DNA of 64,000 nt from an archaeon (GTDB lineage: Archaea; Nanobdellota; Nanobdellia; Pacearchaeales; GW2011-AR1), in contig JABHWZ010000003.1 in the NCBI GenBank assembly GCA_018657525.1, positions 14,840 through 78,839 on the forward strand, read 5' to 3'. The translations under genes and the position numbers were made by a program. Positions 11,412 through 55,281 of this stretch are shown in pieces. Every line of letters begins with the position of its first letter. The first letter of the stretch is position 1. The notes under the pieces were generated by a model. That model was not told the origin of the DNA, did no database searches, and saw nothing but the letters and a program-made list of their open reading frames with translations.

Positions 11412-11434
11412 TTCTCTTTTTCACAATTCGCATT

Positions 11435-11481
11435 CACGCTTAAAAATTTTATTTTTACCTCCGGGATTAAATTTCGCGTAA
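11435..11481. repeat. module F1 (CACGCT..AAATTT..CCTYCGG..AATTTCGCGTAA), copy 1
   Basis: Aligns by eye with 22365..22411 and partly with 32078..32113 (inside polB). Confidence 0.7.
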
Positions 11482-11488
11482 TTGCTCA

Positions 11489-11714
11489 CCCACTATGTAA
11501 TGAATATCTATATATTACAAAAGTTTTATGTTTCGCGAACAAGTCGCTCACTGCATTTTGAAATTATCTAAAGTTTTTCAAAACACAACGTCGGATATAA
11601 AATCCTTGCTGCATTTTGAAATTATCTAAAGTTTTTCAAAACACAAAGGTTCCCTTATAAAACTTTATTTTCACTCCCACTATGTAATGAATATATATAT
11701 TACAAAAGTTTTAT
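11489..11714. repeat. nested direct repeats A-x-B-y-B-z-A
   Basis: A = cccactatgtaatgaatat(ct)atatattacaaaagttttat at 11489-11529 and 11676-11714. B = a 38-nt perfect repeat at 11551-11588 and 11609-11646, separated by 20 nt. Confidence 0.9.
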
Positions 11715-12395: not shown

Positions 12396-12620
12396 GAAAG
12401 ATTATAAATATGGCCTCGATAACCTAAAGGTCACGAGAACCTGTAGGCAGGAGGGATTTAGTCGCTTCGCTCTCAACTTCGCTGAACATCAATTTCGCTA
12501 AAATTGACATAAACCATCGACAACTTCTGTGGAAGTAAAATATTTTTGAATTTCCAAACATTAAAATTTCTTTCAGAAATTGTTATAATCTTTTTGAGAA
12601 AGATTATAAATATGGCCTCG
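12396..12620. repeat. 23-nt perfect direct repeat (tRNA-Lys acceptor 3' strand plus 15 nt of 3' flank) bracketing a 179-nt GC-richer insert
   Basis: gaaagattataaatatggcctcg at 12396-12418 and 12598-12620. The insert starts with module GATAACCTAAAGGTCACGAGAACCTGTAGGCAGGAG. Confidence 0.9.
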
Positions 12621-12687
12621 AAGGGATTTGAACCCTCGACACCCAGATTAAGAGTCTGGTGCTCTGACCAGGCTGAGCTACGAAGCC
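12613..12687 (-). tRNA. tRNA-Lys (anticodon CUU)
   Basis: Hand-folded cloverleaf: GGCTTCG/CGAGGCC acceptor, GCTC/GAGC D stem, CCAGA-CTCTTAA-TCTGG anticodon arm, GAGGG-TTCAAAT-CCCTT T arm. 75 nt. Confidence 0.85.
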
Positions 12688-14688: not shown

Positions 14689-15315
14689 TTAATTTTCTTT
14701 ACAAAATCCTTTTTCTTGTGGTGCCTTTAAACCTTCAAAAAATATTAATTTAATCCAACCTAAATATGGAGCAACTTTGAAGACTGCTTTTCCAACTATT
14801 TGATTTTCTTGGATATTTTTTTCAATTGATAATTGTCCATTGTTATTGTCGCCAATTGTTGAAAATGTTTTTTTGTCTTCAGTTTCATTTATTGCTATTA
14901 TTCTGTGGATTATCGGATGGGCCCTACCTGCATTGAATATTACTACATCTCCAACTTTTAGTTTATTTGTATTTGCGCCGATTATAAATAAAATGTCTCC
15001 TTTGTTGAATCCGTTTTGGAATATGAAATTTTTGAATGCTTCTTGGGTTAAATCAAAGTTTGAATATTTTGTTTTATGATTTTCCCACCAATTGGCATTG
15101 TTCGACAGTAAATTTCCTGAGTGATACATTGAGCATGATTCTACAATTGCTAATGGGAGAGTTGTTCCAGTTACTAAACTTAGAGTCGGGAAAAAAATAA
15201 ATTTGATTAATATAAATAGGAAGATTATAGAGATTATCCAGCCTTTAAATGAGTCGTCTTTCCAAACAGTAAAATAAAATTTATTCCACCATTTTTTGAA
15301 ATCCTCTTTTTTCAT
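14689..15315 (-). CDS. signal peptidase I, archaeal/Sec11 type
   Basis: N-terminal TM; catalytic-Ser context VESCSMYHSG; GDILFI; HPIIHRII His box. Confidence 0.75.
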   Translation of the reverse strand: MKKEDFKKWWNKFYFTVWKDDSFKGWIISIIFLFILIKFIFFPTLSLVTGTTLPLAIVESCSMYHSGNLLSNNANWWENHKTKYSNFDLTQEAFKNFIFQNGFNKGDILFIIGANTNKLKVGDVVIFNAGRAHPIIHRIIAINETEDKKTFSTIGDNNNGQLSIEKNIQENQIVGKAVFKVAPYLGWIKLIFFEGLKAPQEKGFCKEN

Positions 15316-16329: not shown

Positions 16330-16421
16330 ATTTGTATTATAGGTATTCTTATTTATAAATTTAACTATATTACAAAGATATCTTAAAAAAGCTTTAAATA
16401 TTTAGATGTTGTTACTATTGT

Positions 16422-17369
16422 ATGGAAATAAAATACAAAAAGTTCGATACGCATAGTCATATTGGAGTTGATGCGCGGCATCCTTTCATTTCAAATATCG
16501 AAGATTATGTAAGAAATGCCAAGCAAAATGGAATTAATAGATCTCTTTTAATTGGAGTGCCGTTACCGGTTTATCCTAAAGAAGGAGGGATATTTACCCC
16601 TCTTAATTGGAATCTTTCTGGAATTAATTTTGTTATTGCTTCTGAATTTGTAGATTCTGATGGAAATTTAATTCGCGGGAATGTTGAAGAAAACCCTTTT
16701 GCTGAATCGAATTCTCTTTTAGAAACACAGGTTAAGAATAATTCTTCTACAGATTTGAAGTTAGATTTTGTCCCTCATGTGCATCCTTTGTTGGATACTG
16801 AGATGCATTTAAATGAAACTTTGGAAAAAAAACCTCTTGCAGTAAAAGTACATGGTTCTTCTTGGGGGATTAATCCTAAAGATATTTCTCCTTCTTTTTT
16901 TCAGACTTTAAAAAAATATAATGTCCCATTAATAGTTCATACGGATTATAATCAAGATCCACAAAATGGTAGACATTTAATTCAAAAAATGAATGATCCA
17001 TTAGTTTGGATTGATCTGTGTCAAAGATATGGAGTGAGAGCTTCGCTGGCTCATGGTTTAAGACTTTGTCAAGAATCTTGGAAAAAAGTTTCTAAATCTG
17101 GAGGGCAGTTTATTGTTGGTTTTGGACCTAAGTTGGATACAAAACAATCTCATCGAGTAAAAACAACTGGAGTTGATTATACCCCTGCTTTGTTAGGTAT
17201 GGCAGATTTATCCAAACTTACTTATGATGTAGATTTTGCTTGGAATACTGAAAGTTATGACTTTCTTGATTGGACTCTGGGAGATGAATTAATTGGGAAA
17301 GTTTCTGAGGATGAATTAATGGCGGTTTATGCTGGCAATGCTAGAAGGTTTTATGGAGGGATAGATTAA
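16422..17369 (+). CDS. metal-dependent amidohydrolase-fold protein
   Basis: FDTHSHIG N-terminal metal motif, later HVH, VHTD and AHG. Confidence 0.5.
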   Translation: MEIKYKKFDTHSHIGVDARHPFISNIEDYVRNAKQNGINRSLLIGVPLPVYPKEGGIFTPLNWNLSGINFVIASEFVDSDGNLIRGNVEENPFAESNSLLETQVKNNSSTDLKLDFVPHVHPLLDTEMHLNETLEKKPLAVKVHGSSWGINPKDISPSFFQTLKKYNVPLIVHTDYNQDPQNGRHLIQKMNDPLVWIDLCQRYGVRASLAHGLRLCQESWKKVSKSGGQFIVGFGPKLDTKQSHRVKTTGVDYTPALLGMADLSKLTYDVDFAWNTESYDFLDWTLGDELIGKVSEDELMAVYAGNARRFYGGID

Positions 17370-21772: not shown

Positions 21773-22176
21773 TGGGATTTTTTGACGAAGACGGATTTGG
21801 AATAGAAGAGTTTTTTAAGAATTTTAATGGGGGAGAAAATGTTGCGGAATATACTACTGTTGGTTCAGACGGAAAAAAAAGAACTATGCGAAATACTCCT
21901 AGAAATTCAAAGGGTATTCCTGCGAAGCAGGTTGTTTCTCAAGATGAAGTTTTTTTTATTTTTGATTTTTCTGGAGAAAATAATGTTCATGTTGAAGTTG
22001 GAGATGAGTTAGTTTCTAATAATTATGGGGAAAAAGTTTCAACTGGACAAAAAGTTTTGAATATTAAATCATCTAGTAAAGATTTGGGAAATTTTGTTCT
22101 TTCTAAAAAGATTAAATTAAAAACGCTGGAGTTTACATTTAATAATGGAATCTTGGAGGTAAGTTTTAAAAAATGA
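21772..22176 (+). CDS. small Hsp20/alpha-crystallin-like protein
   Basis: The beta-sandwich-like C-terminal half ends in FNNGILEVSFKK (compare the NGVLxI motif). Sits between the two cdc48 genes with ATGA-type overlaps. Confidence 0.45.
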   Translation: MGFFDEDGFGIEEFFKNFNGGENVAEYTTVGSDGKKRTMRNTPRNSKGIPAKQVVSQDEVFFIFDFSGENNVHVEVGDELVSNNYGEKVSTGQKVLNIKSSSKDLGNFVLSKKIKLKTLEFTFNNGILEVSFKK

Positions 22177-22459
22177 AAAACGGATTAATGTTAGATATTG
22201 TTAAACCTAAAAGACACCCGCTGGTTTCTTTTGAACTTCCTCAAAGCTCGGCTCGGCGATTTCCAATTGCCTCCTGCGAAATCGCAAGGTTGTTAAGACA
22301 CTCGTTGATTTCTTTTGAACTTCCTCAAATATCGGTTCGGCAACATCTTTCAATAACTCAAGTCCACGCTCGTAAATTTGAAATTTGCCTTCGGAAGTTA
22401 ATTTCGCGTAAACTTTCGGCCTCCGAGGAATGTTGTGGGCTTCAACAAGGAGATAGAAA
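22173..22459 (+). repeat. 287-nt composite insert beginning with a diverged copy of the cdc48-2 start; the track ORF 22173..22463 is not considered a real gene
   Basis: ATGAAAAACGGATTAATGTTAGATATTGTT versus ATGAAAAATGGATTGATGTTAGATATTGTT at 22460. Internal 50-nt repeat (22213-22262 and 22297-22346), the GGAGGCAA-loop hairpin, and module F1. Confidence 0.85.
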
Positions 22460-24709
22460 ATGAAAAATGGATTGATGTTAGATATTGTTGAAGCAGAAAA
22501 AGATTATTTTGGGAAAAATGTTGTTACGTTGTCATTTGGTGATATGAAAAGATTAGAAATTGTTTCAGGAGATATTTTAAAAGTTAACGGAGAAAAGGAG
22601 TTATATTTTCGAGCAATTAGAACTAATTCCGAGGAAGGAACTATTGGGATTGATGGAGTAGCTAGATCAGTTATTGGGATTTCTGTTGGGGAAAAAGTTC
22701 GAGTTGAAAAAGCTAAAAAATTAGACAAACTAAAAGGGATTACTCTTTCTATTTTGCCAGATAATAATTATAGCAATGATCAGTTAAAGAGTTTTAATGC
22801 TCAGTTAAAAGAAAATGAATTTTTTAGGAAGGTGTTGATTGATTCTCCATTTACTTTAGGTCAGAAAATTTCTGTTCCAACTAATGTGGGCAATTTGACT
22901 TATGTTGTTTCAAAGTGTTTGCCGAAAAAATGTAGTTCGGGAATTGTTGCGGAAGGTACTCGTGTTGATGTAAGTGAGGAGGTTGGTGAGGGTTCAGGAG
23001 TTAATGTTTATTATGAAGATATTGGAGGGTTAAAAGAAGAGATAGAAAAGGTTAGAGAAATGATTGAGTTCCCAATGAATCATCCAGATATTTTCCAGAA
23101 GTTAGGGATTAGTGCACCGAAGGGAGTTTTGTTGACAGGCCCTCCTGGTACAGGTAAGACTCTTTTAGCGAAAGCTGTTGCAACTGAAACTGATGCTAAG
23201 TTTATTTCAATTGCAGGTCCAGAGATAATGAGTAAGTATCATGGGGGATCTGAAGAAAATTTAAGGGCAAAGTTTGAGGAGGCAGAAAAGAATTCTCCTG
23301 CGATTATTTTTATTGATGAGATCGATGCAATTGCTCCGAAGAGAGGAGAGACTCATGACCAGTCTGAGAAAAGGGTTGTTACTCAGCTTTTGACTTTGAT
23401 GGATGGTTTAAAGTCTCGAGGGCAAGTTGTGGTTATGGCAGCGACAAATCGTCCAGAAGATTTAGATGAGGCTCTTAGGCGGCCAGGAAGATTTGATCGG
23501 GAGTTAAGACTTAATCCTCCTTCTGATGCAGGTAGAAAAGAAATCTTGAAGATTCATACTAGAAATATGCCGTTAGGTAATCGGGAGGAAATTTTGGAAG
23601 AGTTTTCTAATAAGACTCTTGGTTATACTGGAGCTGATTTAGAAGTGCTTTGTAAAGAAGCAGCGCTTCGAGCGGTTAAACCATTTTATGCTAAGTTGGT
23701 GGGGATAGAGGATTCAGAAGAAGAGGCCTCGTCGCTGGATTTAAAGAAACAAGAATTGATTTCTCGGGTTGTTGTAACCAAAGAGCATTTTGATTATGCT
23801 ATGAAAATTGTGGAGCCGTCAGCGATGAGAGAAGTGTTGATTAAAAAACCTAATGTTAAATGGGAAGATATTGGAGGTCTTGAAAAAGCAAAGGATAAAT
23901 TACGTGAATTAGTTGAATTGCCGTTGGTGCGTCCGGATTTATTTGATATGGCTGGGATAAAACCCTCAAAAGGCGTTTTAATCTCTGGAGGACCTGGAAC
24001 GGGGAAGACACTTTTAGCGAAGGCAATTGCAAATGAGGCTAAGGCAAATTTCATTTCAGTAAAAGGACCTGAGCTGATTAGTAAATGGGTTGGTGAATCA
24101 GAAAAGCATGTTAGGGAAATTTTTAAGAAAGCTAGGCAAGTTGCACCAGCAATTATTTTCTTTGATGAGTTTGATTCAATTTCAAAATCTCGGGGGGGAA
24201 GTTTGAATGATTCTTCTGAGAAAGTTGTTAATCAGTTATTGACTGAGCTTGATGGAATTGAAGAGTTGGAAAAAGTTATTGTTATTGCGGCGACTAATCG
24301 GAAGGATTTAATTGATCCTGCTGTTCTTCGTCCTGGGAGAATTGATGCTTTGGTTGAATTAGAGATTCCAGATAAAGATACTCGAAAAAAGATTTTTGAA
24401 GTGCATACTAAGAAAATGCCTTTAGATAAATCTGTTAAATTAGATGAGTATGTTTCTAAGAGTGAAGGTTGGACTGGTGCAGACATTGAGGCTGTTTGTA
24501 GAAATGCTGGGATAAATGCGATTAAGGAAGTTTACAAGTTGGATAGTTCTAAAGGATTTAAAATTACAAAAAAAGATTTTGATTATGGCTTAGAAACTGT
24601 AGCACATTCTTCTGGAAGAGAAATTTTTGTAGATAAAAAGACTGGGAAAATTTCTGGGGCAGGGAAAAAAGGAAATTTAACTGAGAATAAAAAAATTAAG
24701 AAGAAATAA
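22460..24709 (+). CDS. cdc48: Cdc48/VCP-like AAA+ ATPase (paralog 2)
   Basis: Same two-AAA architecture ([16 protein letters not shown]). Confidence 0.95.
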
Positions 24710-26583: not shown

Positions 26584-26629
26584 TATTTTTAATCCTTTAT
26601 ATTCTCTGGAAAATTTGTGTTGTTTCATT

Positions 26630-26734
26630 GCGAGACAACCCCTTGTTTTCCTCGCGCTCCTTCCTCGAAGCTCTGATACTCCGAAGGGCACGAGAGGGTA
26701 GCATCTTTAAATTGCCTCCGTCGGATGCCACATG
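26630..26734 (-). repeat. 105-nt structured element, copy 1 (immediately 5' of an ATG on the minus strand)
   Basis: Near-full-length match to 42612..42716 in the opposite orientation. Contains the GGAGGCAA-loop hairpin and the GGGCACGAGAG module. Confidence 0.9.
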
Positions 26735-26760: not shown

Positions 26761-26966
26761 TTTGATATTTTCATTCTTTTATTTTCCTAAATTTACTTAT
26801 GAAGAACCCCTCTGCTCGTGAACCTTCATTGTTATTGAATCTTCTGCTTGTCATTTTATTTTTTTGAATTTTGAAATGAAGAACCCCTCTGCTCGTGAAC
26901 CTTCATTGTTATTGAATCTTCTGCTTGTCATTTTATTTTTTTGAATTTTGAAATGAAGAACCCCTC
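26761..26966 (-). repeat. triplicated NSUN gene 3' end (77-bp units) plus a codon-diverged displaced end
   Basis: Units start at 26799, 26876 and 26953. See findings. Confidence 0.9.
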
Positions 26967-28031
26967 GGTATTATTATCATGAGGATAAACTCTGCAACAT
27001 AATTTTACTTTTGGGTTGAAATTTATTTTTGGATTTTTTTCAGACTTTGCTGTTCCCTCCCGCGAACCACCCTGGGACTCGCTTAGCTCGCTTGATTTAA
27101 TTAACGCAAAGTCTTCTTTTTTTGGATTCCATTCTGTGATTCCTTCTCGACATTTTATTGGGAGTTCTACTTTTTTGATTTTAATTTTATCTCCAAATTC
27201 TTCTAGGGCCCAACTTACTATTGCTTCGTTTTCTTCTGGGGCGTGAGTGCAAGTTGAGTAAATTATTTCTCCGTCAACTTTTAAAATTTCAAAAGCGTGT
27301 TTGAATAATCTTTTTTGAATTTGTGGGAGTGCTTTTGTTACATTTTTTATGTTCCACATTTTGTAGGTTTTATAAGCGCTTCTTAAAGTTCCTTCGCCAG
27401 AACACGGGGCGTCCACAAGGATTTTGTCAAATTTTATTTCTGGGTTGAATTTTGCTAATCTTTTACAAAGTGCGGCTCCTTCTTTTCTGCTGATTATTGT
27501 ATTTGTGACTCCGCATCTTTCTAGGTTTGAAGAAAGAATTCTGAGTCGGCCCATTGAAATTTCATTGGCGATTATTGCTCCTTGGTTTTCCATTGCTGCT
27601 GCTATCTGAGTTGTTTTGGATCCGGGTGCTGCGGCTAGATCTAGGATTAATTCTCCTGCTTTTGGTTTGAGTGCAATTATCGGAAGCATTGAGGCAAGTT
27701 CTTGAATATAATAATATCCGAGTAAATGTTCTTCTGCCCTTCCGAGTTCTCCTGGTTCAAGTGAGATTAAATTATTTTCAGAATTATATTTTCCTTCGAT
27801 AATCATGACTTCCGGGTTTGATTCCCACGGGCGAGATATTTTCCATGTTTTTTCTTCTAATCTTTTTTTTAATTTTTCAGGAGATATTTTTAAGGGGTTG
27901 CAACGGATAGAATTTACTGGTTTTATTTTTAGGATATCCAAATAGGATTGAAAATCTTTTTTATCTGGAAGAAGCTGTTTTATTCGTTCTTCGAATTCAG
28001 GTTTCATTTCTGGAATTTTTATTTTTGTCAT
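26928..28031 (-). CDS. NOL1/NOP2/Sun-family RNA cytosine-C5 methyltransferase
   Basis: DLAAAPGSKT SAM motif; DAPCSGEG and YSTCT catalytic Cys motifs; C-terminal EGFFI. Confidence 0.85.
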   Translation of the reverse strand: MTKIKIPEMKPEFEERIKQLLPDKKDFQSYLDILKIKPVNSIRCNPLKISPEKLKKRLEEKTWKISRPWESNPEVMIIEGKYNSENNLISLEPGELGRAEEHLLGYYYIQELASMLPIIALKPKAGELILDLAAAPGSKTTQIAAAMENQGAIIANEISMGRLRILSSNLERCGVTNTIISRKEGAALCKRLAKFNPEIKFDKILVDAPCSGEGTLRSAYKTYKMWNIKNVTKALPQIQKRLFKHAFEILKVDGEIIYSTCTHAPEENEAIVSWALEEFGDKIKIKKVELPIKCREGITEWNPKKEDFALIKSSELSESQGGSREGTAKSEKNPKINFNPKVKLCCRVYPHDNNTEGFFISKFKKIK

Positions 28032-30252: not shown

Positions 30253-32871
30253 TTAAAAATCTCCAAGAGTCATTTGTTTTTTGCCCTCGAGAATTTCTTT
30301 GATATTGACATCTAAAACTTGGAAAATATTTTCTACTGCCGGAAGAATTTGTTTGTTCAAATAATATTCAATTTCGTATTCTCCTTTTTCAGTTGGAAGT
30401 TTTACTTTATCTCGTACGAGTTTTACTTTTTTCCCTCCTGTCTCGGCGATGTAATATTCAATTAAATTCCCTTGAGAAACAGGGATTTCTTGTTCTTTCA
30501 TTTTTTTTGCTGCAATCACATGTGGGCCCTGAGCTTTGTATTCTGAGAGGGGTTTTTTCAGTTGGGTTTTAATCATTAATTCTTTTAATTTAATTTCTCT
30601 GTTTTTTATTTTTTTTACAATTTCTTTGATATAAATTAAGGCTTTTTTTTCGTTTCCGTCTTTTAAAACTAACTGGATAATTTTGTTTTGTGTTTTTCTT
30701 GCTAGTTTACACCAGTCTCTTCGAACTGTTTCAAAACCGCGGATTTTTATTTTGTCTTCTTTGTCGATTAAGGCGTATTTCTTTTTCGCACCTGTTGTTC
30801 CTGCGCGAGTTGTTACCCAAAGTCCTTTTTCAAAAAATCCTTCAAGTTCGAGTTCCATTATTCCTGGAAGTTTGGAGTTGATTTGTTTTAGAGTTTCTTT
30901 GACTTCTTTTTTGGTCTTTTCGTTGATTAAAAATGCGATTGAATCTGTGTCAGAGTAAATTGTTTTGTAGCCTTCTTTGTCAATTCCCTTGATTGTGTTT
31001 TTAATGAAGTCGCGACTGATTGCGGTTGCTGCTCCAGAGGCTTCAGGACAATAATATCTTGCGCCGAAAAATCCCATATAACCATAAGATGCGTTTGCTA
31101 AAAGTTTGAAAGCATTGCTTCGCGCTTTTTTTAAAACGTCTGGTTTTTCAAACAGTTCTTTTTTGTATTGTTTTCTTTTTTCAATTATTTCTTTTAATAG
31201 TTCTGGAAAGAAACCTGTTTTTTTTGTGAAGTAAACTTTTTTTCCCAGGACTTCAGCTTCGACGGAATCTTTTTCTTTTTTTTCTAGGAGGGTTGATTTT
31301 GATAAATTAAATGTTACTATTATGCTTGGCCAAAAACTTGTGAAATCAAACATTGCAATGTTTTCGTATAAATTTGGGATTGGTTCGAAGACAAATGCGC
31401 CTTCGTATTTTTCTCTTTCTCTTCTTTCTTGGATTTCTTTGTAGCCTGCTTTTCTTTCTGGAATTTCGTTGAAGCGTTTTAAATTATGTAGAATATAATC
31501 TTCAACATTTGAAGACATTCCTTTCCTTGAGACATCAAAGGGGGGTTCTTGAATTACTCTTGAGAATTCTAAAATGTCTGGCCAGAATTTATTGAATAAC
31601 TGGAATGTTAAGAGTGAATCGTGCAAATTGTATTCATAATATTTCTCCCATTCGTTTTCTTTTATTTTTGAAGAGTGTTTAAATTCAAAGTCTTTTTTTG
31701 TGTCGCCTAAAAATTCTTTTGAAACTTCATTTAGCGAGAGAGTTTCTGATTGCATGTACTGAGAGTATGCGGTTCTGATGAATTTTAATAAGTCAATATG
31801 GGGAATGCCTTTTATTTTGCATTTTAAATCTCTGCCTCCGCCGGTTCTTGAAAATCTTGGTTGTGAGTCGTCGAGTCCTAGGTTTAATTTAATGTTGAAT
31901 TTTTGAGCTCTTGCTTTTATGTAGGGTAAGTCAAAACCGTCTGAATAATATCCTACTAAAAAATCAGGGGAGATTTTTTTTACATATTCAATAAATTTTT
32001 CAATTAGTTCTGCTTCGTCCTCGACATATTCCACTTCATTTGATTTATGTTCTGATGGCTCCTGACCTCGCTCGGAATTTTTATTTTTACCTTCGGAATT
32101 TTTTCTCGCAAAATCACTCGTTTTCCATGTTATAACTTTTTTGAAATTGTCTGAAACTAAAGACACCATAAGAATTTCTCCTTCCCCGATTCCGATTTCA
32201 TCTGTTTCAATATCAAAGGCAAGGGTTTTTGGAGTAAAAGTTTTTTTGATATCCTTTTCTCTAATTTTTTTTATTGTGTTTACTTTTATGCACATATCAA
32301 CATCAAGTGCCATGTCAATGCCTCCGAATTCTTCTGAGTTGTTGAGTAATTCTCCTTCAATTTTATACCAGTTTAGTGGGACTAATTCTTTTTCTATAAT
32401 GTAATGGCTGATATATCCCAAGTCATAGCCTCTTCTTTTGTCAATTTCTGGGAAGTCGATGTGGCTTGCAATGTCGTGCATGTCTTTATAGTTTGTCGCG
32501 AATACTTTTAGGGCCTGGACTTTTTGCCCAAGGAAATTTTTTTCATGTAACTCTACTTTTTCAACTTTTGTTTTTCTGCCTTTTACATCTAATTGAATTT
32601 TAAGAATTTTTTTAGTTATTTTTTCAACACTGCTCAGTGTGCCTTTCTTTGCGGACCGATCGGCATACTCCAAAAAGTTTGAATTCTGGAGCAAGTGCTT
32701 GGGTGTTTTGATTTGAGAAATTTTTGGTTTTAGAATTGCCCAGAGATAAACTGGACATTCATCTATAATGCAAATTTGTTTGCCTGTTTCGTTTCTTCCG
32801 ATGATTCGCGCGTAGTTTCTTCCTTTAAAATCAAAGTAATCGTAGTCAATTGGGATGAATTTTGTTTCCAT
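30253..32871 (-). CDS. polB: family-B DNA polymerase
   Basis: Exo motifs FDIET and YSDGFDLPYI. Pol motifs SFWPSIIV, KLLANASYGY and YSDTDS. C-terminal QMTLGDF is PIP-like. Start at METKFIPIDYDYF; upstream track codons are rejected. Confidence 0.95.
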   Translation of the reverse strand: METKFIPIDYDYFDFKGRNYARIIGRNETGKQICIIDECPVYLWAILKPKISQIKTPKHLLQNSNFLEYADRSAKKGTLSSVEKITKKILKIQLDVKGRKTKVEKVELHEKNFLGQKVQALKVFATNYKDMHDIASHIDFPEIDKRRGYDLGYISHYIIEKELVPLNWYKIEGELLNNSEEFGGIDMALDVDMCIKVNTIKKIREKDIKKTFTPKTLAFDIETDEIGIGEGEILMVSLVSDNFKKVITWKTSDFARKNSEGKNKNSERGQEPSEHKSNEVEYVEDEAELIEKFIEYVKKISPDFLVGYYSDGFDLPYIKARAQKFNIKLNLGLDDSQPRFSRTGGGRDLKCKIKGIPHIDLLKFIRTAYSQYMQSETLSLNEVSKEFLGDTKKDFEFKHSSKIKENEWEKYYEYNLHDSLLTFQLFNKFWPDILEFSRVIQEPPFDVSRKGMSSNVEDYILHNLKRFNEIPERKAGYKEIQERREREKYEGAFVFEPIPNLYENIAMFDFTSFWPSIIVTFNLSKSTLLEKKEKDSVEAEVLGKKVYFTKKTGFFPELLKEIIEKRKQYKKELFEKPDVLKKARSNAFKLLANASYGYMGFFGARYYCPEASGAATAISRDFIKNTIKGIDKEGYKTIYSDTDSIAFLINEKTKKEVKETLKQINSKLPGIMELELEGFFEKGLWVTTRAGTTGAKKKYALIDKEDKIKIRGFETVRRDWCKLARKTQNKIIQLVLKDGNEKKALIYIKEIVKKIKNREIKLKELMIKTQLKKPLSEYKAQGPHVIAAKKMKEQEIPVSQGNLIEYYIAETGGKKVKLVRDKVKLPTEKGEYEIEYYLNKQILPAVENIFQVLDVNIKEILEGKKQMTLGDF
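32622..32672. repeat. hairpin element AACACTGCTCAGTGT..TTTGCGG.., copy inside polB (in frame)
   Basis: Aligns with 39901..39951. Confidence 0.8.
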
Positions 32872-33429: not shown

Positions 33430-33468
33430 ATATTTATATTCTGTTTTTCTTAGTTTTATTAATAGAAT

Positions 33469-33561
33469 AAATTTAATCAGCCCAATTCGCTCTCGCTCAT
33501 TTTCCCAACCGCGAGTCCTATTTGCTGAAATTTCATAGAAATTTCAGTTATGAATAAATTT
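33469..33561 (+). mobile_element. MITE-like element A, copy 1 (93 nt, 10-11 nt terminal inverted repeats)
   Basis: AAATTTAATCA...TGAATAAATTT ends, internal CAGCCCAATTCGCTCTCGCTCATTTTCCCAACCGCGAG, and a subterminal hairpin. Confidence 0.75.
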
Positions 33562-33602
33562 ATTAAAAAGTAAAAGGAATAAAATTTAAAAATAAAAATA
33601 AA

Positions 33603-34640
33603 ATGGGATTAAATATTCGAGATATTATACCGAAAAAAGAATTGCAACTTGAGAGTTTGAATGGGAAGACTCTTTGTGTTGATGCGTTTAATACTTTATA
33701 TCAGTTTTTGTCAAGTGTGCGGCAGATGGATGGGACGCCTTTGATGGATTCTAAAAAACAGATTACTTCTCATCTTTCTGGGATTCTTTATCGTAATGCG
33801 GCTTTGTTAGAGCAAGGAATTAAATTAGTTTATGTTTTTGATGGGAAGGCCCCAGATTTAAAAGCGAAGACTCACAAAAAGAGAAAGGAAGCTAAAGAAC
33901 TGGCTGCTGAAAAATATGAAGAGGCAAAGCAAGAAGAGGACATTATGAGAATGAAAAGATATTCTAGCCAATTAGTTCGTTTAGATGATGAGATGATTAA
34001 AGAGAGTAAAGAATTATTGATTGCTATGGGAGTGGCAATTGTGCAGGCACCGTCAGAGGGAGAAGCAGAGGCAGCTTATTTGGCAAAGAAAAAAGAAGTT
34101 TATGCTGCAGCGAGTCAAGATTATGATAGTTTGCTTTTTGGAACTCCTCGTTTAATTCAGAATTTGACTTTGGCAAGAAAGAGAAAAACTATTTCAGGTT
34201 ATCGAGAAGTAAATCCTGAATTAATTGATTTGCAAGAAGTTTTGGATAGATTGGAAATTGATTTAGATCAATTAATTTGTTTGGGAATTTTGGTTGGCAC
34301 AGATTATAATCCGAAGGGGATTCCAGGGATTGGACAAAAGAAGGCATTACAAATTGTTCAGAAATTTAAACAGCCGGTTTTAATTTTTAAGGAAATCAAT
34401 GAAAAAATTTCTTCTTTGCCAGAGGAAGATCAATTTGATTGGAAAGAAATTTTTGCATTGTTTCATAAACATCCTGTTAAGGATGTGGAATTTGATTTTG
34501 GGAAAATTGATGAAGATAAAATTCGTGAAATACTTGTGACAAGACACGAATTTTCTGAAGAGAGAGTTGAAAAACAGATTGAGAGATTAAGGAAAATTGA
34601 AGAGAAAGGAAAACAAAAAGGTTTGGATAAGTGGTTTTAA
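33603..34640 (+). CDS. fen: flap endonuclease 1
   Basis: MGLNIRDIIP.., VFDG, EGEAEAAYL, GTDYNPKGIPGIGQKKA (H3TH). C-terminal PIP box QKGLDKWF. Confidence 0.95.
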   Translation: MGLNIRDIIPKKELQLESLNGKTLCVDAFNTLYQFLSSVRQMDGTPLMDSKKQITSHLSGILYRNAALLEQGIKLVYVFDGKAPDLKAKTHKKRKEAKELAAEKYEEAKQEEDIMRMKRYSSQLVRLDDEMIKESKELLIAMGVAIVQAPSEGEAEAAYLAKKKEVYAAASQDYDSLLFGTPRLIQNLTLARKRKTISGYREVNPELIDLQEVLDRLEIDLDQLICLGILVGTDYNPKGIPGIGQKKALQIVQKFKQPVLIFKEINEKISSLPEEDQFDWKEIFALFHKHPVKDVEFDFGKIDEDKIREILVTRHEFSEERVEKQIERLRKIEEKGKQKGLDKWF

Positions 34641-34645
34641 GAAAC

Positions 34646-34738
34646 AAATTCAATCAGCCCAATTCGCTCTCGCTCATTTTCCCAACCGCAAACCCTAATT
34701 GTAAAATTTCTTTTAGAAATTTTATTATGATTGAATTT
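34646..34738 (+). mobile_element. MITE-like element A, copy 2
   Basis: AAATTCAATCA...TGATTGAATTT. The first 50 nt are nearly identical to copy 1. Confidence 0.8.
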
Positions 34739-34791
34739 AGAAATTAAATATGGAATAAAAAATAATTGAAATATATTTTACAAAATAAAGT

Positions 34792-37083: not shown

Positions 37084-37175
37084 GTTTGGAATATGAAAAG
37101 TTTCTTTAAATAGTTTATCATTTTTTGAATTGTGCAGAATGGTTTGGGTTTTGATTTTTTGGATTCCCACTATTA

Positions 37176-37226
37176 GTTGAGCTTTAGCTCAACGACCCAC
37201 CCTCGCCATCCCTCCCCCTTCGCCCC
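37176..37226. repeat. GC-rich element: perfect palindrome GTTGAGCT-TT-AGCTCAAC followed by GACCCACCCTCGCCATCCCTCCCCCTTCGCCCC
   Basis: Lies in the divergent intergenic region. Shares CCCTCGCC and CCCTCCCCC blocks with elements at 55129 and 58246. Confidence 0.6.
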
Positions 37227-37304
37227 AAAAATTTGTAAAAAATCAAACCTTATATAGAGTTAAATTATAAGAAGATATTTAAATAACATTTTCTATTTTA
37301 GTTT

Positions 37305-38997: not shown

Positions 38998-39882
38998 ATG
39001 AGGGGGAAATTTATTTTTGGGGTGTTTTTTTTGTTCTTATTATTGGGGAATTTGGGTGCTCAAGTTGGTGGGGACGAGATAGTAAAGGGGGGGGAAGCTG
39101 TTGAAAAAGTTGAAGAGCTTTTTTCTGAACCAGATACTGCTCTGGATTATTTGAGGAGAGAGTGGACAAAGATTTTTGAAACAAAGCCGTATATTGGAAA
39201 AACACTTTCTGTTTTAGATTCTGTTTTTACTTGGGTGAGTCCTTTTTTTAAATATGTTTTAGGAATTTCTTATGCAATGAGTTTTGAGTTTTTTTTGACT
39301 TTACTTTTCTTTTTAGTTTTATCAATTTGGGGTTTTAGGATTTCTGCTTTTTTTATACCGTTTTCAATTAATTATGGGAGTTATTTAAGGTGGGCAGGAA
39401 CGTTTGGGATTATTTTAATTTTGAGGTTTACTCTTTTTCCGCATTTTATTTTGACTACTATTTTTAATCAGGTTTCTAAACTTGATGCTTGGTATAATCA
39501 GATTGTATTTGTGTTAGTCTTTTTTTCTATTTTAGCTGTTTTACATGCTTATTCTAAAAATTTGGAAAAAGCCTTTGAAAATTGGGGAACTGGGGTTAAG
39601 AGAAAGTTTTTTGACAATAAAACCCTAGAGGCAGAAGCGAAAGCAGAAGAAGCTAAGGAAGAAGTTAAAGCTATTGTTAGTGGTAAGATTCCTTTCAGAA
39701 AAGGAGCGGGAGCAGGAACTCCAATTATTCAATATGGAGATCCAATAACTGGAAAGAAATCCAAATCTGAATTATTTGAGAAAGCATGGGAAGATTCATT
39801 GGAAATTTCTAAGAAAATTAAAACGCCTAAGATTCCAAAAGTTCCAAAGTATGGTAAGAAGTTAAAAAAAGAAGGGCTTTAA
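38998..39882 (+). CDS. membrane protein (signal peptide plus about 5 TM, Lys-rich tail)
   Basis: Hydrophobicity pattern. Confidence 0.45.
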   Translation: MRGKFIFGVFFLFLLLGNLGAQVGGDEIVKGGEAVEKVEELFSEPDTALDYLRREWTKIFETKPYIGKTLSVLDSVFTWVSPFFKYVLGISYAMSFEFFLTLLFFLVLSIWGFRISAFFIPFSINYGSYLRWAGTFGIILILRFTLFPHFILTTIFNQVSKLDAWYNQIVFVLVFFSILAVLHAYSKNLEKAFENWGTGVKRKFFDNKTLEAEAKAEEAKEEVKAIVSGKIPFRKGAGAGTPIIQYGDPITGKKSKSELFEKAWEDSLEISKKIKTPKIPKVPKYGKKLKKEGL

Positions 39883-39900
39883 TTTTTTTGAGATTTATTT

Positions 39901-39951
39901 TTTTAACACTGCTCAGTGTACCCCTTTTTGCGGTTTGCTTGGGCATATTTC
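39901..39951. repeat. hairpin element AACACTGCTCAGTGT..TTTGCGG.., copy forming the 3' end of CDS 39913..40692
   Basis: Aligns with 32622..32672. Confidence 0.8.
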
Positions 39952-40692
39952 TTCTTTTTTAGCTTTTTTTGCGTTAGCTTTTGCAATTTCAATTAGTTTG
40001 TAAAGTTTGTTTGCGTTTCTCACTTTAATAAAAAGGGTTATGAATAAAACAAAAAAAATAATTGCGGTTAAATTTGTTATAGGTTTTGTTATTCCCCCAA
40101 TTGCGTTGCCAGTTATATTTGGTGTTGCTAAAAAAACTGAGATTAAAAGAAAACTTAGGAGGGTTATTATTATTTGGGCGGTTCCATATGTGCCTGTTCC
40201 GTCATCTTCTAAATCAGTAACTGGTTCTTCATCCTCTGCGGTGGGTCTTTGTTTTCTTGCGACGAGGTACTTTGCTATAGCAGTTTGTTGAGCTTGATTT
40301 CTCTCTTCTTGTTCTGCATATTTTCTAGATCTATTTGGATTATAATTTCCTTTTCCTTCAATATAATCTTCTAAATTACCTATGCCTCCAAAAACTTCTT
40401 CAATATTTTGATTTAATCCATAGGCAGATAAAGTTTCTCTTGCAGCTATTTCGTTGAGTATCATTTGGCGGGTGATAGTTCTTCCGGATTCTTTGCTTAA
40501 GCTTTCTGCCGCGTTACCAAGTTGTTGATGGATTGCAGAACCTTTAGAAATTGTTTGATATTCATCGTATAACGTTGCGGCTTTTACTGCACCAGATGCA
40601 ATGCCTTTCCATAATCTTCCGTAAAGTTTAGCAAGTCCCTTTGTAATTGTAAATGGAGAAGTTACTAATTTTCTCACCAAACTTTTTGCCAT
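39913..40692 (-). CDS. hypothetical protein with a C-terminal TM-NITGNAI-TM module; its last 12 codons lie in a dispersed repeat
   Basis: ..LLISVFLATPNITGNAIGG..IIFFVLFITLFIKV. The tail EICPSKPQKGVH* is encoded by the ACACTGCTCAGTGT element. Confidence 0.45.
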   Translation of the reverse strand: MAKSLVRKLVTSPFTITKGLAKLYGRLWKGIASGAVKAATLYDEYQTISKGSAIHQQLGNAAESLSKESGRTITRQMILNEIAARETLSAYGLNQNIEEVFGGIGNLEDYIEGKGNYNPNRSRKYAEQEERNQAQQTAIAKYLVARKQRPTAEDEEPVTDLEDDGTGTYGTAQIIITLLSFLLISVFLATPNITGNAIGGITKPITNLTAIIFFVLFITLFIKVRNANKLYKLIEIAKANAKKAKKEEICPSKPQKGVH

Positions 40693-41636: not shown

Positions 41637-42055
41637 AAGATTTTGATGACTTTCTAAAAAGAGGGGTGGTTAAAAAACAATCTGTTAATGAGCCAAGAGC
41701 TAAAGATTTGGTTTCTGAAGCTGAAAGAAAATTAAGTTCAATGAATCGTGTTATTAAGAAAATAGGAATTGATGACGCAAATGCTAATGATATTATTGAA
41801 AATTGTTGCGATATTATTCTTAGTTTAATACGTTCGAAAATGTTTTTGAAGGGGTTTAGCGCTTCTGGAAGTGGAGCTCATGAAGCAGAAGTTTCTTTTT
41901 TAAAAAAATTGGAATTTAATGAACAACAAATCGAATTTATTAATTCTTTGAGATATTTTAGGAATGGAATTTTGTATTATGGAAAACGATTTGATAAAGA
42001 ATATGCAAAAAAAGTAGTCAAATTTTTAAAACAGGTAAAGGTTAAATTAAAATGA
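41633..42055 (+). CDS. HEPN-like domain protein (partner of the MNT)
   Basis: 140-aa all-helical protein with a 4-nt overlap with the MNT gene. The R-x4-H position reads FRNGILYY (His replaced by Tyr). Confidence 0.5.
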   Translation: MKDFDDFLKRGVVKKQSVNEPRAKDLVSEAERKLSSMNRVIKKIGIDDANANDIIENCCDIILSLIRSKMFLKGFSASGSGAHEAEVSFLKKLEFNEQQIEFINSLRYFRNGILYYGKRFDKEYAKKVVKFLKQVKVKLK

Positions 42056-42987
42056 GATCTTATAGTGTTTTGGGGAATATAGCGTTGGTTAATTTTCCGA
42101 GGGAATTTAAAGGAAGCAAAATTAATTTTGCTAAGAAAATTTTGAAAGAGAACAAATCAGTTAAGACTGTTTTGGAAAAAGTGGGAAAATTTTCTGGGAG
42201 GTTGAGGAAGATTTCAACTAAATGGTTAGCGGGGGAAAAAAATAAAGAAGTTTTGTATAAAGAAAATAATTGTGTTTTTAGATTTAATATTGATTCAACT
42301 TATTTTTCTCCGAGGCTGAGTAATGAGCGGAAAGAGATTGCAGGATTGGTTAAGAAAGATGAAAATGTTTTAGTTATGTTTGCAGGGGTGTCACCGTTTT
42401 CAATTGTTATTGCGAAGAATTCAAAAATTGGGCGTAGTTCTGCGTACCCTAAATTGCGGAATGCTAAGGTATATTCAAATGAGATAAATCGCGAAGCAAA
42501 TAAATACGCGAAGTTAAATATTGAATTAAATAAATTGAAAGAGAGGGTTGAATTGTTGCCTGGTGATATCAAAAAAGTTACTGAGAAAATTTTGAAGGGG
42601 TGGAGGGAAAACCATGCGGTATCTGTAGGAGGCAAAGAAAAGATGCCGCCCTCTCGTGCCCTTGAGGGTATCAGTGTTTCGAGGAAGGAGCGCGAGGAAA
42701 ACAAGGGGTTGCCTCGCTTTGATGTGATTGTAATGCCGCGACCGCAGTTGAAAGATAGTTTTTTGGAGCAGGCGTTTAAGTTGTCAAAACGCGGAACGCG
42801 AATTTATTATTATGATTTTTGTAAAATTGATGCTCTTGAAGGAACAAAGTATTTTGATTTGATTATTAAGAAGATTAAAGATGAGGCAAAAAAAGCTGGG
42901 AAGAAAATTAGAATTGTGAATAAGAAATTGGCGGGAGATATTGCTCCGTATAAGTATCGTGTGCGGGTTGATTTTATAATTTTGTAA
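42052..42987 (+). CDS. Trm5/Taw22-like tRNA (m1G37) methyltransferase carrying two in-frame repeat insertions
   Basis: YFSPRLSNER, VLVMFAGVSPFSI, YSNEIN, and FDVIVMPRP (NPPY-equivalent). Confidence 0.7.
   Translation: MRSYSVLGNIALVNFPREFKGSKINFAKKILKENKSVKTVLEKVGKFSGRLRKISTKWLAGEKNKEVLYKENNCVFRFNIDSTYFSPRLSNERKEIAGLVKKDENVLVMFAGVSPFSIVIAKNSKIGRSSAYPKLRNAKVYSNEINREANKYAKLNIELNKLKERVELLPGDIKKVTEKILKGWRENHAVSVGGKEKMPPSRALEGISVSRKEREENKGLPRFDVIVMPRPQLKDSFLEQAFKLSKRGTRIYYYDFCKIDALEGTKYFDLIIKKIKDEAKKAGKKIRIVNKKLAGDIAPYKYRVRVDFIIL
42612..42716 (+). repeat. 105-nt structured element, copy 2, in frame inside the Trm5-like CDS
   Basis: Encodes ..HAVSVGGKEKMPPSRALEGISVSRKEREENKGLPR.. between conserved Trm5 motifs. 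Confidence 0.9.
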
Positions 42988-43613: not shown

Positions 43614-43692
43614 CTTTGGGGTTTAGTCGGGATATGATATCTCGGAGCGCAGCTTGGTCGCCGTTAATTTTGACTGCGGTGGGAGCCTCGCC

Positions 43693-43802
43693 AATTCCCA
43701 ACCCTGATTTTTTTCCCATTACCCCTTTTTTATTTGAAAGCCCCAAAAATCAAAGTTGCTCGCCATGCCAGACACTCCAGCGAATCACAACCGCTTCTTC
43801 AT
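43693..43802 (-). repeat. 110-nt insert at the HerA-like gene 3' end (TTCCCAACCCTGATTTTT...AAAATCAAAGTTGCTC module plus a new 5-codon tail)
   Basis: Bracketed by two copies of the GEAPTAVK-coding 24-mer (43669-43692 and 43803-43826). Confidence 0.85.
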
Positions 43803-45095
43803 TTTGACTGCGGTTGGTGCTTCCCCTCCGTGCCAAGTAAATCTCGGACGAATTCTCATTGGATAAATTCTTTCTGAATTGTCATCTAAAATTATGGCTG
43901 AACCTTTCAGGGTTGGTAAATCATTCATATACTGTTGAATACTATTTAAAAGATAGCTTTGCATAATTTGATTTAGGGCTTCTATGTCGGGTTGAGAAGT
44001 AACTCTGTGTGAAATAACTATATCTGACTGAGTCATAACGTCGGTGTGGATTTTCCCGGGTTGTTGTGTTGCGAGAACTACTGAAATGCCGGGTTGTCGT
44101 CCTTCTCTCAATAATTGAATCAATGCATCTGTTGCCAAAGTTTTTCCTTCTTTGGGTAAAAATTCATGACCCTCGTCGATAAATATCCAAACAAGGGGGT
44201 ATTCTTTTTTTTCTTGCGTCGTTAAAATATCCAACCCTTGTGAAACTGCATTTATTTCTTCTTTTTTTCTTGCGTCCATTCGCTGATTGAAAATTTTTCT
44301 TGAAATTAAACTTATAACTAATGCCCGCACATTAAATGCTCCAACAGAATTGTAAACGCTTAAATCTAAAATGGAAGTCATACCTCGATTTATTAATTCT
44401 GTTACCGCTGTTGGTTTGTCCCCTGATTTTGCAAATACCCCCCATGTGTTCGCTGCTTCGAATAATCCCATTGTTGCATTTTTGGTTTCTTGAGAAGATT
44501 TTTCATCTTTTTCAATTTCAGAAATTATTTCTTCTAAAAAATAATTTCCTTCTTCTTTTAATTTTGTGATTGTTCTTTCGATTAAAACTGCGATTGGATG
44601 AGTTAAGTCTAAGTTAAAAGTTAGAATCCAATCTTCGGGATTCATTTCTGCAATGTCTAGTGCGAATTTTTCGTCGATGGGAATGCCTTTTTCAAGATAT
44701 GAATTAAAATGTCCAGCTGGGACAAAAACTTTTATTGGTAAGTTTTTGGCTTTTAAATCCCATTCTTCTAAAAGTTCCCTATCCTTTTTATTTTGATATT
44801 TCATTGTCCAGTAAATTCCCATTGTGTCAAAAATTAGAGAGGATAAGTTTTGAGAAACTTTTTTTGGTAAGTTTGTAAGTTCTTCTGCTAATGAACCCAA
44901 TGTGTAACTTTTACCTGAACCTCTTTTTCCTGCCACTAGGACAACGTGCGATCTGGCGACGTCCATGAAAATTTTATTTGAAAGAGAAGTGTATTGCCCC
45001 ATTTTTACAAATCCTTTTCCGATATAAATTAAACCTTCTTTTCCAAATGTTTTTTTATCACTTGCATTTCTTCCAAGGATTATATCATAAGCCAT
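43785..45095 (-). CDS. HerA/DUF87-type P-loop ATPase (VirB4/FtsK-HerA superfamily)
   Basis: VLVAGKRGSGKSYTLG Walker A, VWIFIDEGHEF Walker B, and VVLATQQPGKI..SDIVISHRV. Confidence 0.75.
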   Translation of the reverse strand: MAYDIILGRNASDKKTFGKEGLIYIGKGFVKMGQYTSLSNKIFMDVARSHVVLVAGKRGSGKSYTLGSLAEELTNLPKKVSQNLSSLIFDTMGIYWTMKYQNKKDRELLEEWDLKAKNLPIKVFVPAGHFNSYLEKGIPIDEKFALDIAEMNPEDWILTFNLDLTHPIAVLIERTITKLKEEGNYFLEEIISEIEKDEKSSQETKNATMGLFEAANTWGVFAKSGDKPTAVTELINRGMTSILDLSVYNSVGAFNVRALVISLISRKIFNQRMDARKKEEINAVSQGLDILTTQEKKEYPLVWIFIDEGHEFLPKEGKTLATDALIQLLREGRQPGISVVLATQQPGKIHTDVMTQSDIVISHRVTSQPDIEALNQIMQSYLLNSIQQYMNDLPTLKGSAIILDDNSERIYPMRIRPRFTWHGGEAPTAVKMKKRL

Positions 45096-55140: not shown

Positions 55141-55281
55141 AAAGTTCCCAACCCTGATTTTTAATTTTATAATTTACTTTCAGGATTTAATTAAAATCAA
55201 AGTTGCTCATCGAACTTATAAAAAGCTTTCTGAATTTACTCCAAAACTCTACGAGTTTAACAGCATTTAACAATGCTGGTT
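55141..55281 (-). repeat. 141-nt insert with the same TTCCCAACCCTGATTTTT...AAAATCAAAGTTGCTC module, bracketed by 14-nt tRNA-Glu 3'-end copies
   Basis: acgccctcgccgaa at 55127-55140 and 55282-55295. Confidence 0.85.

Follow-up and report, generated by a model that had tools for sequence, protein, structure and literature searches.

Why should the replicative DNA polymerase of an ultra-small archaeon carry, in frame, two segments that recur elsewhere in the surrounding DNA? We addressed this question in a window of 64,000 nucleotides (nt) with a GC content of 31.9%, covering positions 14,840 to 78,839 of contig JABHWZ010000003.1 (assembly GCA_018657525.1, Pacearchaeales). The gene for the family-B DNA polymerase (PolB) lies at 30253-32871 on the minus strand, where the open reading frame (ORF) and its translation give a complete protein of 872 amino acids (aa) that starts METKF (P0001, identical to HN832_00275 at NCBI) and matches Thermococcales PolB structures at E of about 1e-114. 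A preliminary description had presented two segments of this gene, here called (a) and (b), as repeat modules read in frame. The sequences, coordinates and translations that it quoted are all present where it placed them, and both segments are indeed in frame and without a stop codon, as the ORF is open throughout; the peptides encoded across 32000-32750 include NSEGKNKNSER and SAKKGTLSSVEK. We found that both segments are insertions, that (a) belongs to a dispersed repeat family with a covarying helix, named F1, and that (b) is a single 78-nt insertion with a 46-nt core common to one other locus of the window. [quoted passage not shown]

Alignment with orthologs, the check that the preliminary description had named, bore out for both segments that they are insertions rather than ancestral protein sequence. 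We compared the protein with 118 aligned PolBs that were 64-75% identical to it and the gene with 87 related loci (given below by L numbers), 79 of them GTDB species representatives; the nearest orthologs, from metagenome-assembled genomes labelled Pacearchaeota, Woesearchaeota or Nanoarchaeia, are 65-75% identical and about 54 aa shorter. Between K48 and D95, the site of (b), 115 of the 118 orthologs have 22 residues, whereas the PolB of the window has 48, and the additional 26 (T56-S81, nt 32629-32706) occurred in none of 117 aligned orthologs and in none of the 87 related loci. The linker after VITWK, the site of (a), has 32 residues compared to a modal length of 11-15 among the orthologs (range 10-39). 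A HMMER alignment to the solved KOD polymerase (1WN7) split into three pieces and broke exactly at both segments: two KOD residues (179-180) stand opposite 25 residues at segment (a), and the alignment begins only downstream of (b). An AlphaFold model built on the 118-sequence alignment (mean predicted local distance difference test score, pLDDT, 85.7; predicted template modelling score, pTM, 0.83) showed dips in pLDDT only at residues 51-80 (54-70) and 251-280 (36-55, with 259-276 below 50), while the flanks scored 87 or more. The model, proposed earlier as a check for surface loops, has both segments as low-confidence excursions from a confident core; they may be disordered loops on the surface. 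The flanks of (b), KISQIK and KILKIQ, had also been read as an imperfect duplication; this did not hold, because the 18 native residues around (b) align one-to-one with ortholog residues, and the flanks are therefore not a target duplication. Nor is the gene a one-off assembly artefact, since the identical protein was found on 23 public contigs from several sources.

What, then, was inserted at segment (a)? The insert, a copy of F1, occupies 32057-32121 on the minus strand (82.7 bits with the covariance model R1) and reads TSDFARKNSEGKNKNSERGQEP, in frame from T251 to about E274. It starts at codon T251, immediately after W-K (TGGAAA), where the R1 match also begins, and the repeat unit defined from two other copies ends at the codon at 32050, which is the insert end in the ortholog alignment; most orthologs do without it. 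A comparison of the copies showed that the residues "TSD" are part of the F1 element and not of the native linker. The module had been described at three loci, and a repeat search of the window recovered these as one family (11418-11481, 22348-22411 and 32050-32113, 63-70% identical). The two other copies are non-coding and lie on the minus strand at 22355-22419, within a 287-bp composite that also holds copies of a second element, alpha (see below), and at 11425-11489, on the edge of a repeat-rich intergenic region; a fourth copy, intergenic at 55143-55210 on the minus strand, was detected by the covariance model only (33.2 bits, E = 2e-5), with the loop CCTGAAAGTAAAT and 9 of the 10 pairs of the helix described below. 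All four copies thus lie on the minus strand regardless of the direction of neighbouring genes, and those at 22.4 kb and 11.4 kb are antisense to the genes that flank them. Upon comparing the PolB gene with the whole window, the three best non-self matches were exactly the two segments (E = 3.7e-8, 2.2e-4 and 2.2e-4), and the subsequent matches were AT-rich, low-complexity sequence with E of at least 2e-3.

F1 extends well beyond the window. A profile made from the two non-coding window copies alone retrieved the PolB copy at E = 3.6e-5 in a search of 1.47 Mb and also found copies in the archaeon GW2011_AR19 (L019), and R1 yielded 33 matches at E ≤ 1 in 1.45 Mb of related genomes, with F1 copies in at least ten genomes besides the window. 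The elements measure 55-80 nt, with conserved ends (CGAG-CGAYTTCGCG ... CGAGCGAGGTCG-GGAG) and an AT-rich middle that varies in sequence and length. Their ends, GCGAYTTCGC and GCGAGGTCGG, are imperfect terminal inverted repeats of about 10 bp, which are indistinguishable from the stem of an RNA or a single-stranded DNA. In the PolB copy the two strands of this helix, P1, lie on the minus strand at 32108-32117 (5' strand, GTGATTTTGC) and 32062-32071 (3' strand, GCGAGGTCAG), and 9 of the 10 pairs are formed, three of them G.U. In an alignment of seven copies (A7; columns 6-15 and 52-61), 91.4% of the cells of the 10-bp helix were paired compared to 76.9% in shuffles, a level that none of 500 shuffles reached, and 5 of the 10 pairs changed on both sides. 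With 20 members (A11), in an alignment fitted to the covariance model and therefore favouring the structure, pairing was 93.4% versus 75.4% in shuffles and 8 of the 10 pairs showed double changes; slid controls gave 23-49% pairing for A7 and 23-50% across both alignments. Pairs of U and G were frequent across the 20 members, the two ends differing consistently at T/C positions such that these pairs form on one strand only. Single-sequence folding recovered P1 in the PolB, 22.4-kb and 11.4-kb copies; an inner helix that the non-coding copies keep is missing from the PolB copy. Copies within genes share one orientation and one reading frame, [TA]SDFA[KR]...ERG[RQ]E, which we found in the PolB of the window, in two L019 proteins (an RsmB-like methyltransferase and an M24 peptidase), and in ORFs from both L077 and L060. 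F1 is hence a dispersed repeat family with a covarying helix. Rfam, searched both at the gathering threshold and at E ≤ 1, returned only two tRNAs in the window and no family that matched the elements.

These results bear on the simplest alternative, namely that the segments are ordinary fast-evolving, low-complexity surface loops whose likeness arises by chance or composition. The wide length range of the linker at (a), the modest pairwise identity of the F1 copies and the inflation of weak matches in a genome with 32% GC are what this alternative would lead one to expect. Yet it does not account for the independent profile match to the PolB copy, for the fit of the repeat boundaries to both insert ends (32050, and T251 after W-K), for compensatory changes that preserve the helix, or for the constant length of the site of (b) in nearly all orthologs; nor does it explain an exact 15-mer together with 79% identity over 56 nt between (b) and the locus at 39.9 kb (E = 3.7e-8 for the PolB gene). 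We give it almost no credence, and chance or compositional similarity is essentially excluded.

The open reading frame speaks to a different possibility, in which the segments are removed, as a bulge-helix-bulge (BHB) intron, by ribosomal bypass of the byp type or as a mini-intein, and the polymerase is made without them. GC-rich hairpin inserts across coding genes of an AT-rich genome do resemble the mitochondrial byp elements of Magnusiomyces, which Lang and co-workers are said to have described in 2014 as inserts of this kind, and DPANN splicing endonucleases are said to be broadly specific. However, ribosomes skip the byp elements, which disrupt the frame, whereas the inserts here are open and in frame, which makes read-through the simpler reading; every in-gene copy that we examined is in frame and free of stops (with some ascertainment bias), and removal would make such a frame unnecessary. 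The predicted and covarying structures of F1 show a continuous 10-bp helix in place of the two 3-nt bulges and 4-bp helix of a BHB intron. Likewise, inserts of 21-26 aa contain no intein or mini-intein splicing domain (at least about 130 aa, with Hint motifs), and P0001 shows polymerase domains only, whereas the orthologs P0002 and P0026, which carry true inteins, were flagged for PF14528 and PF14890. Removal of the segments is, in our estimate, very improbable.

The status of segment (b) as a repeat rests on two copies. The insert (32629-32706 on the minus strand, 78 nt, T56-S81) lies in the N-terminal domain, reads TPKHLLQNSNFLEYADRSAKKGTLSS and is unique among the 118 orthologs and 87 loci. 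Its repeated core, at 32626-32672 on the minus strand, contains the palindrome ACACT-GAGC-AGTGT and has one edge at the 3' junction of the insert. The second core, at 39905-39951 on the minus strand, is located between convergent genes and supplies the last ~13 codons and the TGA of the minus-strand ORF 39913-40692; it is there read one frame off and provides the stop codon, exactly as the preliminary description had stated. The 15-mer AACACTGCTCAGTGT is exact at 32626 and 39905 (chance expectation 0.53 at up to 3 mismatches), and in a self-comparison of the window 32599-32654 and 39878-39933 were 79% identical over 56 nt (E = 9e-7), while only 46 of the 78 inserted nt are common to the 39.9-kb locus. 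Apart from the 5-bp palindrome there is a possible 10-bp hairpin, and folding was not significant. That (b) is an insertion is firm, and the insertion reading of both segments is supported.

As only two copies of the core were found in the 64 kb, and none in 1.47 Mb of relatives, in JGI metagenomes or in IMG/VR, (b) may be a one-off templated patch rather than a member of a mobile family: a break in polB would have been mended with a copy of about 46 nt taken from the 39.9-kb locus, or the other way round. The partial sharing of the insert and its lack of significant secondary structure fit this alternative. Against it, the copy count for this genome covers the 64-kb window only, the shared core ends at the insert junction, and at least three more GC-rich inserts stand in frame in the window, namely (a) in PolB itself and those in a Trm5/TYW2 gene and an RsmB-like gene, so that insertion of elements is the prevailing process here. 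For (b), and for (b) only, we regard a one-off repair as a serious contender, if the less probable one. A scan of JGI metagenomes for the core (GCAAA-N7-ACACTGAGCAGTGT) gave two short contigs without extended similarity, judged to be chance matches; a protein-word search with both insert peptides joined retrieved no other protein, and a comparison of ORF 39913-40692 with all representatives gave no informative ortholog. We also considered whether (b) might be the variable region of a diversity-generating retroelement and rejected this, as the differences between the two copies involve all bases and are not adenine-specific; no reverse transcriptase was present among the 10 large window ORFs that we examined.

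Is F1 the only element of its kind? The element alpha consists of two hairpins: H1 (GCGAYTTC-loop CGGAGGCAA-GAARTCGC) and H2, which varies from GAAAGA/TCTTTC to GCGAGA/TCTCGC. We found it in the PolB of seven genomes, in frame in RsmB-like genes (L008, L058) and Trm5/TYW2 genes (the window and L045), at the start of the gene for replication factor C (RFC; L070, L011), and between genes. The window contains four and a half copies, of which three and a half lie on the minus strand, again irrespective of how the neighbouring genes run. The plus-strand copy (42615-42718, 104 nt) is in frame in a Trm5/TYW2-like methyltransferase gene (42052-42987), where it reads HAVSVGGKEKMPPSRALEGISVSRKEREENKGLPR; the L045 ortholog of this gene has an 80-nt alpha variant at the same site in another frame. 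On the minus strand are an intergenic copy at 26629-26731, a copy at 60513-60598 directly upstream of the start codon of the beta-subunit gene of phenylalanyl-tRNA synthetase (PheRS), and, beside the F1 copy of the composite, a full and a half copy (22209-22286 and 22295-22354) at 22.2 kb, antisense to flanking genes. At its 3' end, alpha runs directly up to an ATG, probably the start codon, of the PheRS beta-subunit gene, of a PUA-domain gene (copy at 26629-26731) and of RFC (L070 415-492); in L011 (544-627) its in-frame translation lengthens RFC at the N-terminus. Over 13 distinct H1 helices, 94% of cells were paired versus 77% in shuffles (0 of 2000 reached this level), in a count by our own script with stem ends fixed by eye, which we used because MAFFT put the alpha stems out of register and which carries less weight than the counts for F1. 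A relationship between F1 and alpha, for which we can name only the stem consensus GCGAYTTC and a CGGAGGYAA-type loop motif, is not established; a search with an alpha sequence profile failed to detect F1. Scans of IMG/VR with both halves of alpha found nothing.

Several observations concern the surroundings of alpha. The 287-bp non-coding composite at 22.2 kb, which contains one F1, one full alpha and one half alpha, is bracketed by a 46-nt direct repeat of the start of a CDC48 paralog (22167-22212 and 22454-22499), and the arrangement looks like an insertion that regenerated the 5' end of this gene. In the RsmB-like gene of L058, alpha (16378-16449) is flanked by a 16-17 nt direct repeat (AGTAATGATTGTTGAA) that duplicates the peptide EVMIVE. 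Long direct repeats of 16-46 nt thus flank some alpha insertions and composites, and none flanks (b) in PolB. In L005, a tyrosine-recombinase gene of the phage-integrase family (60-863) lies directly upstream of the alpha-bearing PolB, at a place where other genomes have a small ORF with unknown function. In the window, the RsmB-like gene (26928-28031, minus strand) has a 32-aa GC-rich insert at about 27036-27100 (DFALIKSSELSESQGGSREGTAKSEKNPKINF), which six orthologs do without and which occupies the same C-terminal loop as the F1 copy of L019; it could not be aligned convincingly to F1.

Comparison among polymerases showed that the loop after VITWK, between exonuclease motifs I and II, is a recurrent and independent site of insertion, with at least four element types in different lineages. 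Inserts of a third type, beta, are 83-87% identical at the DNA level in three PolBs that are themselves 64-71% identical to each other, and each of these has closer relatives (81-92% identical) without the insert; over alpha- and beta-bearing PolBs together, the hosts are 64-71% identical and have closer relatives (75-92%) that lack it. Empty and filled alleles exist side by side, most clearly in three PolB genes with 87-90% DNA identity: the site is vacant in L092, is filled in L006 by a 60-nt beta before TATGT, and in L091 by a 54-nt hairpin that follows TGGAAA without a gap, just where F1 stands in the PolB of the window. L058 has one alpha copy in PolB and another in RsmB, with common variants peculiar to that genome, and private variants also link the window copies at 26.6 kb and 42.6 kb; this favours spread, or homogenisation, inside each genome rather than inheritance site by site. 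Further PolB inserts of 20-27 aa occur at reference positions of about 480 and about 525 (L029, L049, L074), one of them tandemly duplicated in L029.

The elements might instead be functional RNA modules and not selfish DNA. As hairpins specific to one strand, with purine-rich loops of the GGAGG type, they would work at the level of the mRNA and be selected at particular positions of informational genes, where they might bind the anti-Shine-Dalgarno end of the ribosome or a protein, or might tune translation or mRNA stability. Several findings fit this proposal: the helices covary with many U.G pairs present on the sense strand only, every alpha copy that lies within an identified gene or immediately upstream of one is in sense orientation, alpha 3' ends abut likely starts in the window (pheT, and the gene at 26.6 kb) and in the RFC gene of L070, different genomes carry alpha at matching sites in PolB, RsmB-like, Trm5/TYW2 and RFC genes, and the elements are more conserved than their host genes. 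It is at odds with the antisense position of several copies (F1 at both 22.4 and 11.4 kb, and alpha at 22.2 kb), with the majority of orthologs, which do without an element, with the loss of the inner helix from the PolB copy of F1 and with the lack of any Rfam match, while the two ends could also covary through symmetric recognition of the terminal repeats by a protein. We consider an RNA function unlikely. Somewhat less doubtful, and still tentative, is the broader idea that F1, alpha, beta and their relatives form an undescribed superfamily of strand-specific DPANN hairpin elements that enter conserved genes of replication and translation again and again at matching positions (the stretch from Exo I to Exo II in PolB, an RsmB-like methyltransferase, Trm5/TYW2 and the start of RFC), either through a new mechanism of site-directed mobility or as RNA modules, the latter branch being suggested by the GGAGG-type loops and the 3' ends that abut start codons. 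If true, the elements would be more than passive junk.

We favour the explanation by selfish, tolerated elements. F1-type elements sit between genes and, in one orientation and frame, within housekeeping genes. F1 would be a non-autonomous element of 55-80 nt whose design is related to that of alpha, beta and the 54-nt hairpin. Such elements would insert widely and, within genes, survive only where the frame is kept, no stop codon is introduced and the protein structure is not harmed; a surviving copy would then be translated into a hydrophilic, disordered loop, and the inserts would have been kept since they are in frame, stop-free and located in loops that tolerate an extra hydrophilic peptide. 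A number of points weigh against this explanation. Mobility and selfishness of the elements, as well as translation of the segments, are things we infer. A limited test of the 10 large window ORFs showed no transposase domain, and we saw no clear target-site duplication of variable sequence for F1; almost every copy has GAG on either side, which is conserved and may, for that reason, belong to the element. P1 was first read by eye from the same sequences in which its pairing was counted, the larger of the two alignments favours structure as stated above, and single-sequence folding energies were no better than those of shuffles (z from -1.8 to +0.7). To this may be added the two copies of the (b) core. 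Among the annotated genes of the fetched loci, which make up a small part of each genome, there were one DDE transposase (L008) and one integrase (L005), neither of them linked to the elements; no Y1 transposase was seen, and the 5' flanks of 17 alpha copies showed no fixed 4-mer and were only A-rich, with ..CCA in some.

How do the inserts compare with known systems? RPEs are dispersed hairpin repeats that lie in frame in many unrelated genes, with a conserved peptide for each family, as well as between genes and at sites thought to be compatible with the protein fold (PMC10969869). F1 shares with them its multicopy, dispersed nature (4 copies in the window and the 33 R1 matches, as opposed to only 2 copies for (b)), its in-frame presence in unrelated genes with a conserved peptide frame, and its hairpin, with P1 paired at 91-93% versus 75-77% in shuffles, whereas (b) has only its 5-bp palindrome. 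The PolB inserts have pLDDT values of 36-70 in the model, with 87 or more in the flanks, and fall into gaps of the KOD alignment; they may sit at sites that the fold tolerates. In contrast, the hosts here are archaea (Pacearchaeota- or Woesearchaeota-like DPANN) and not alpha-proteobacteria, the families look unrelated (homology to the RPE families would not be expected from the host domain and the differing consensus), F1 is 55-80 nt long with a variable middle as compared to about 100-150 nt, and the PolB loop was hit independently by several families in many lineages. Archaeal MITEs have been listed from Sulfolobus, Halobacterium, Haloquadratum and Desulfurococcus, not from DPANN (PMC10969869). 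F1 resembles MITEs in being small, multicopy and non-coding with imperfect inverted ends of about 10 bp, and differs from them in that we saw no variable target-site duplication and found no parent insertion sequence or transposase in the 10 large window ORFs, and in that its two ends show consistent T/C differences, so that U.G pairs form on just one of the strands.

Strand-specific hairpins are typical of the palindrome-associated transposable elements and repetitive extragenic palindromic elements that derive from IS200/IS605 and are mobilised by Y1/HUH transposases. The elements described here are like these in their strand-specific hairpins, in lacking classical terminal repeats and duplications, and in their orientation bias (one strand for 4 of 4 F1 copies and 3.5 of 4.5 alpha copies), and unlike them in that we saw neither a fixed 5' target of 4-5 nt, in the flanks of the 17 alpha copies, nor a Y1 transposase. 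The literature that we searched contained no report of such elements in DPANN genomes. In-frame hairpin repeats of the RPE type are known from Rickettsia, and relative to that literature their occurrence in DPANN archaea is new.

Rickettsia is the best-known case in which selfish repeats have settled in frame within essential genes. The same pattern in ultra-small DPANN archaea suggests convergence, between reduced and AT-rich genomes from two domains of life, on this route to variation in protein length. Gene calls and alignments of DPANN marker genes, PolB and RFC among them, take in repeat-derived peptides, by which phylogenies and domain annotations can be led astray. Nearly identical polymerase genes with and without an insert provide a direct handle on the movement of an archaeal mobile element, and with them one can ask whether a disordered loop of 20-26 residues beside the proofreading site is tolerated by a replicative polymerase or put to use.

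The window shows some further repeats and GC-rich tracts. PolB has FEN1, two CDC48 paralogs, RFC, PheRS and a topoisomerase among its neighbours, and direct repeats of about 148 nt (76% identical) stand on both sides of the FEN1 gene (33443-33589 and 34621-34765). At 26777-26966, a 77-nt unit occurs three times in tandem as a triplicated 3' end of the RsmB-like gene (..TEGFFISKFKKIK*). Intergenic GC-rich islands, with 60-72% GC in a genome of 32%, lie at 43618-43855, 56011-56162, 56388-56554 and 37173-37239; they had no Rfam match, and the pair at 56044-56138 and 56450-56538 is a repeat near tRNA-Gln. Finally, a 24-nt duplicate of the 3' end of tRNA-Lys (CTT) and its flank (12399-12422 and 12601-12624) lies about 200 bp from the tRNA gene and may be the remnant of an integration site; the DNA between the two duplicates is GC-richer and has the motif AGGAGGGA.

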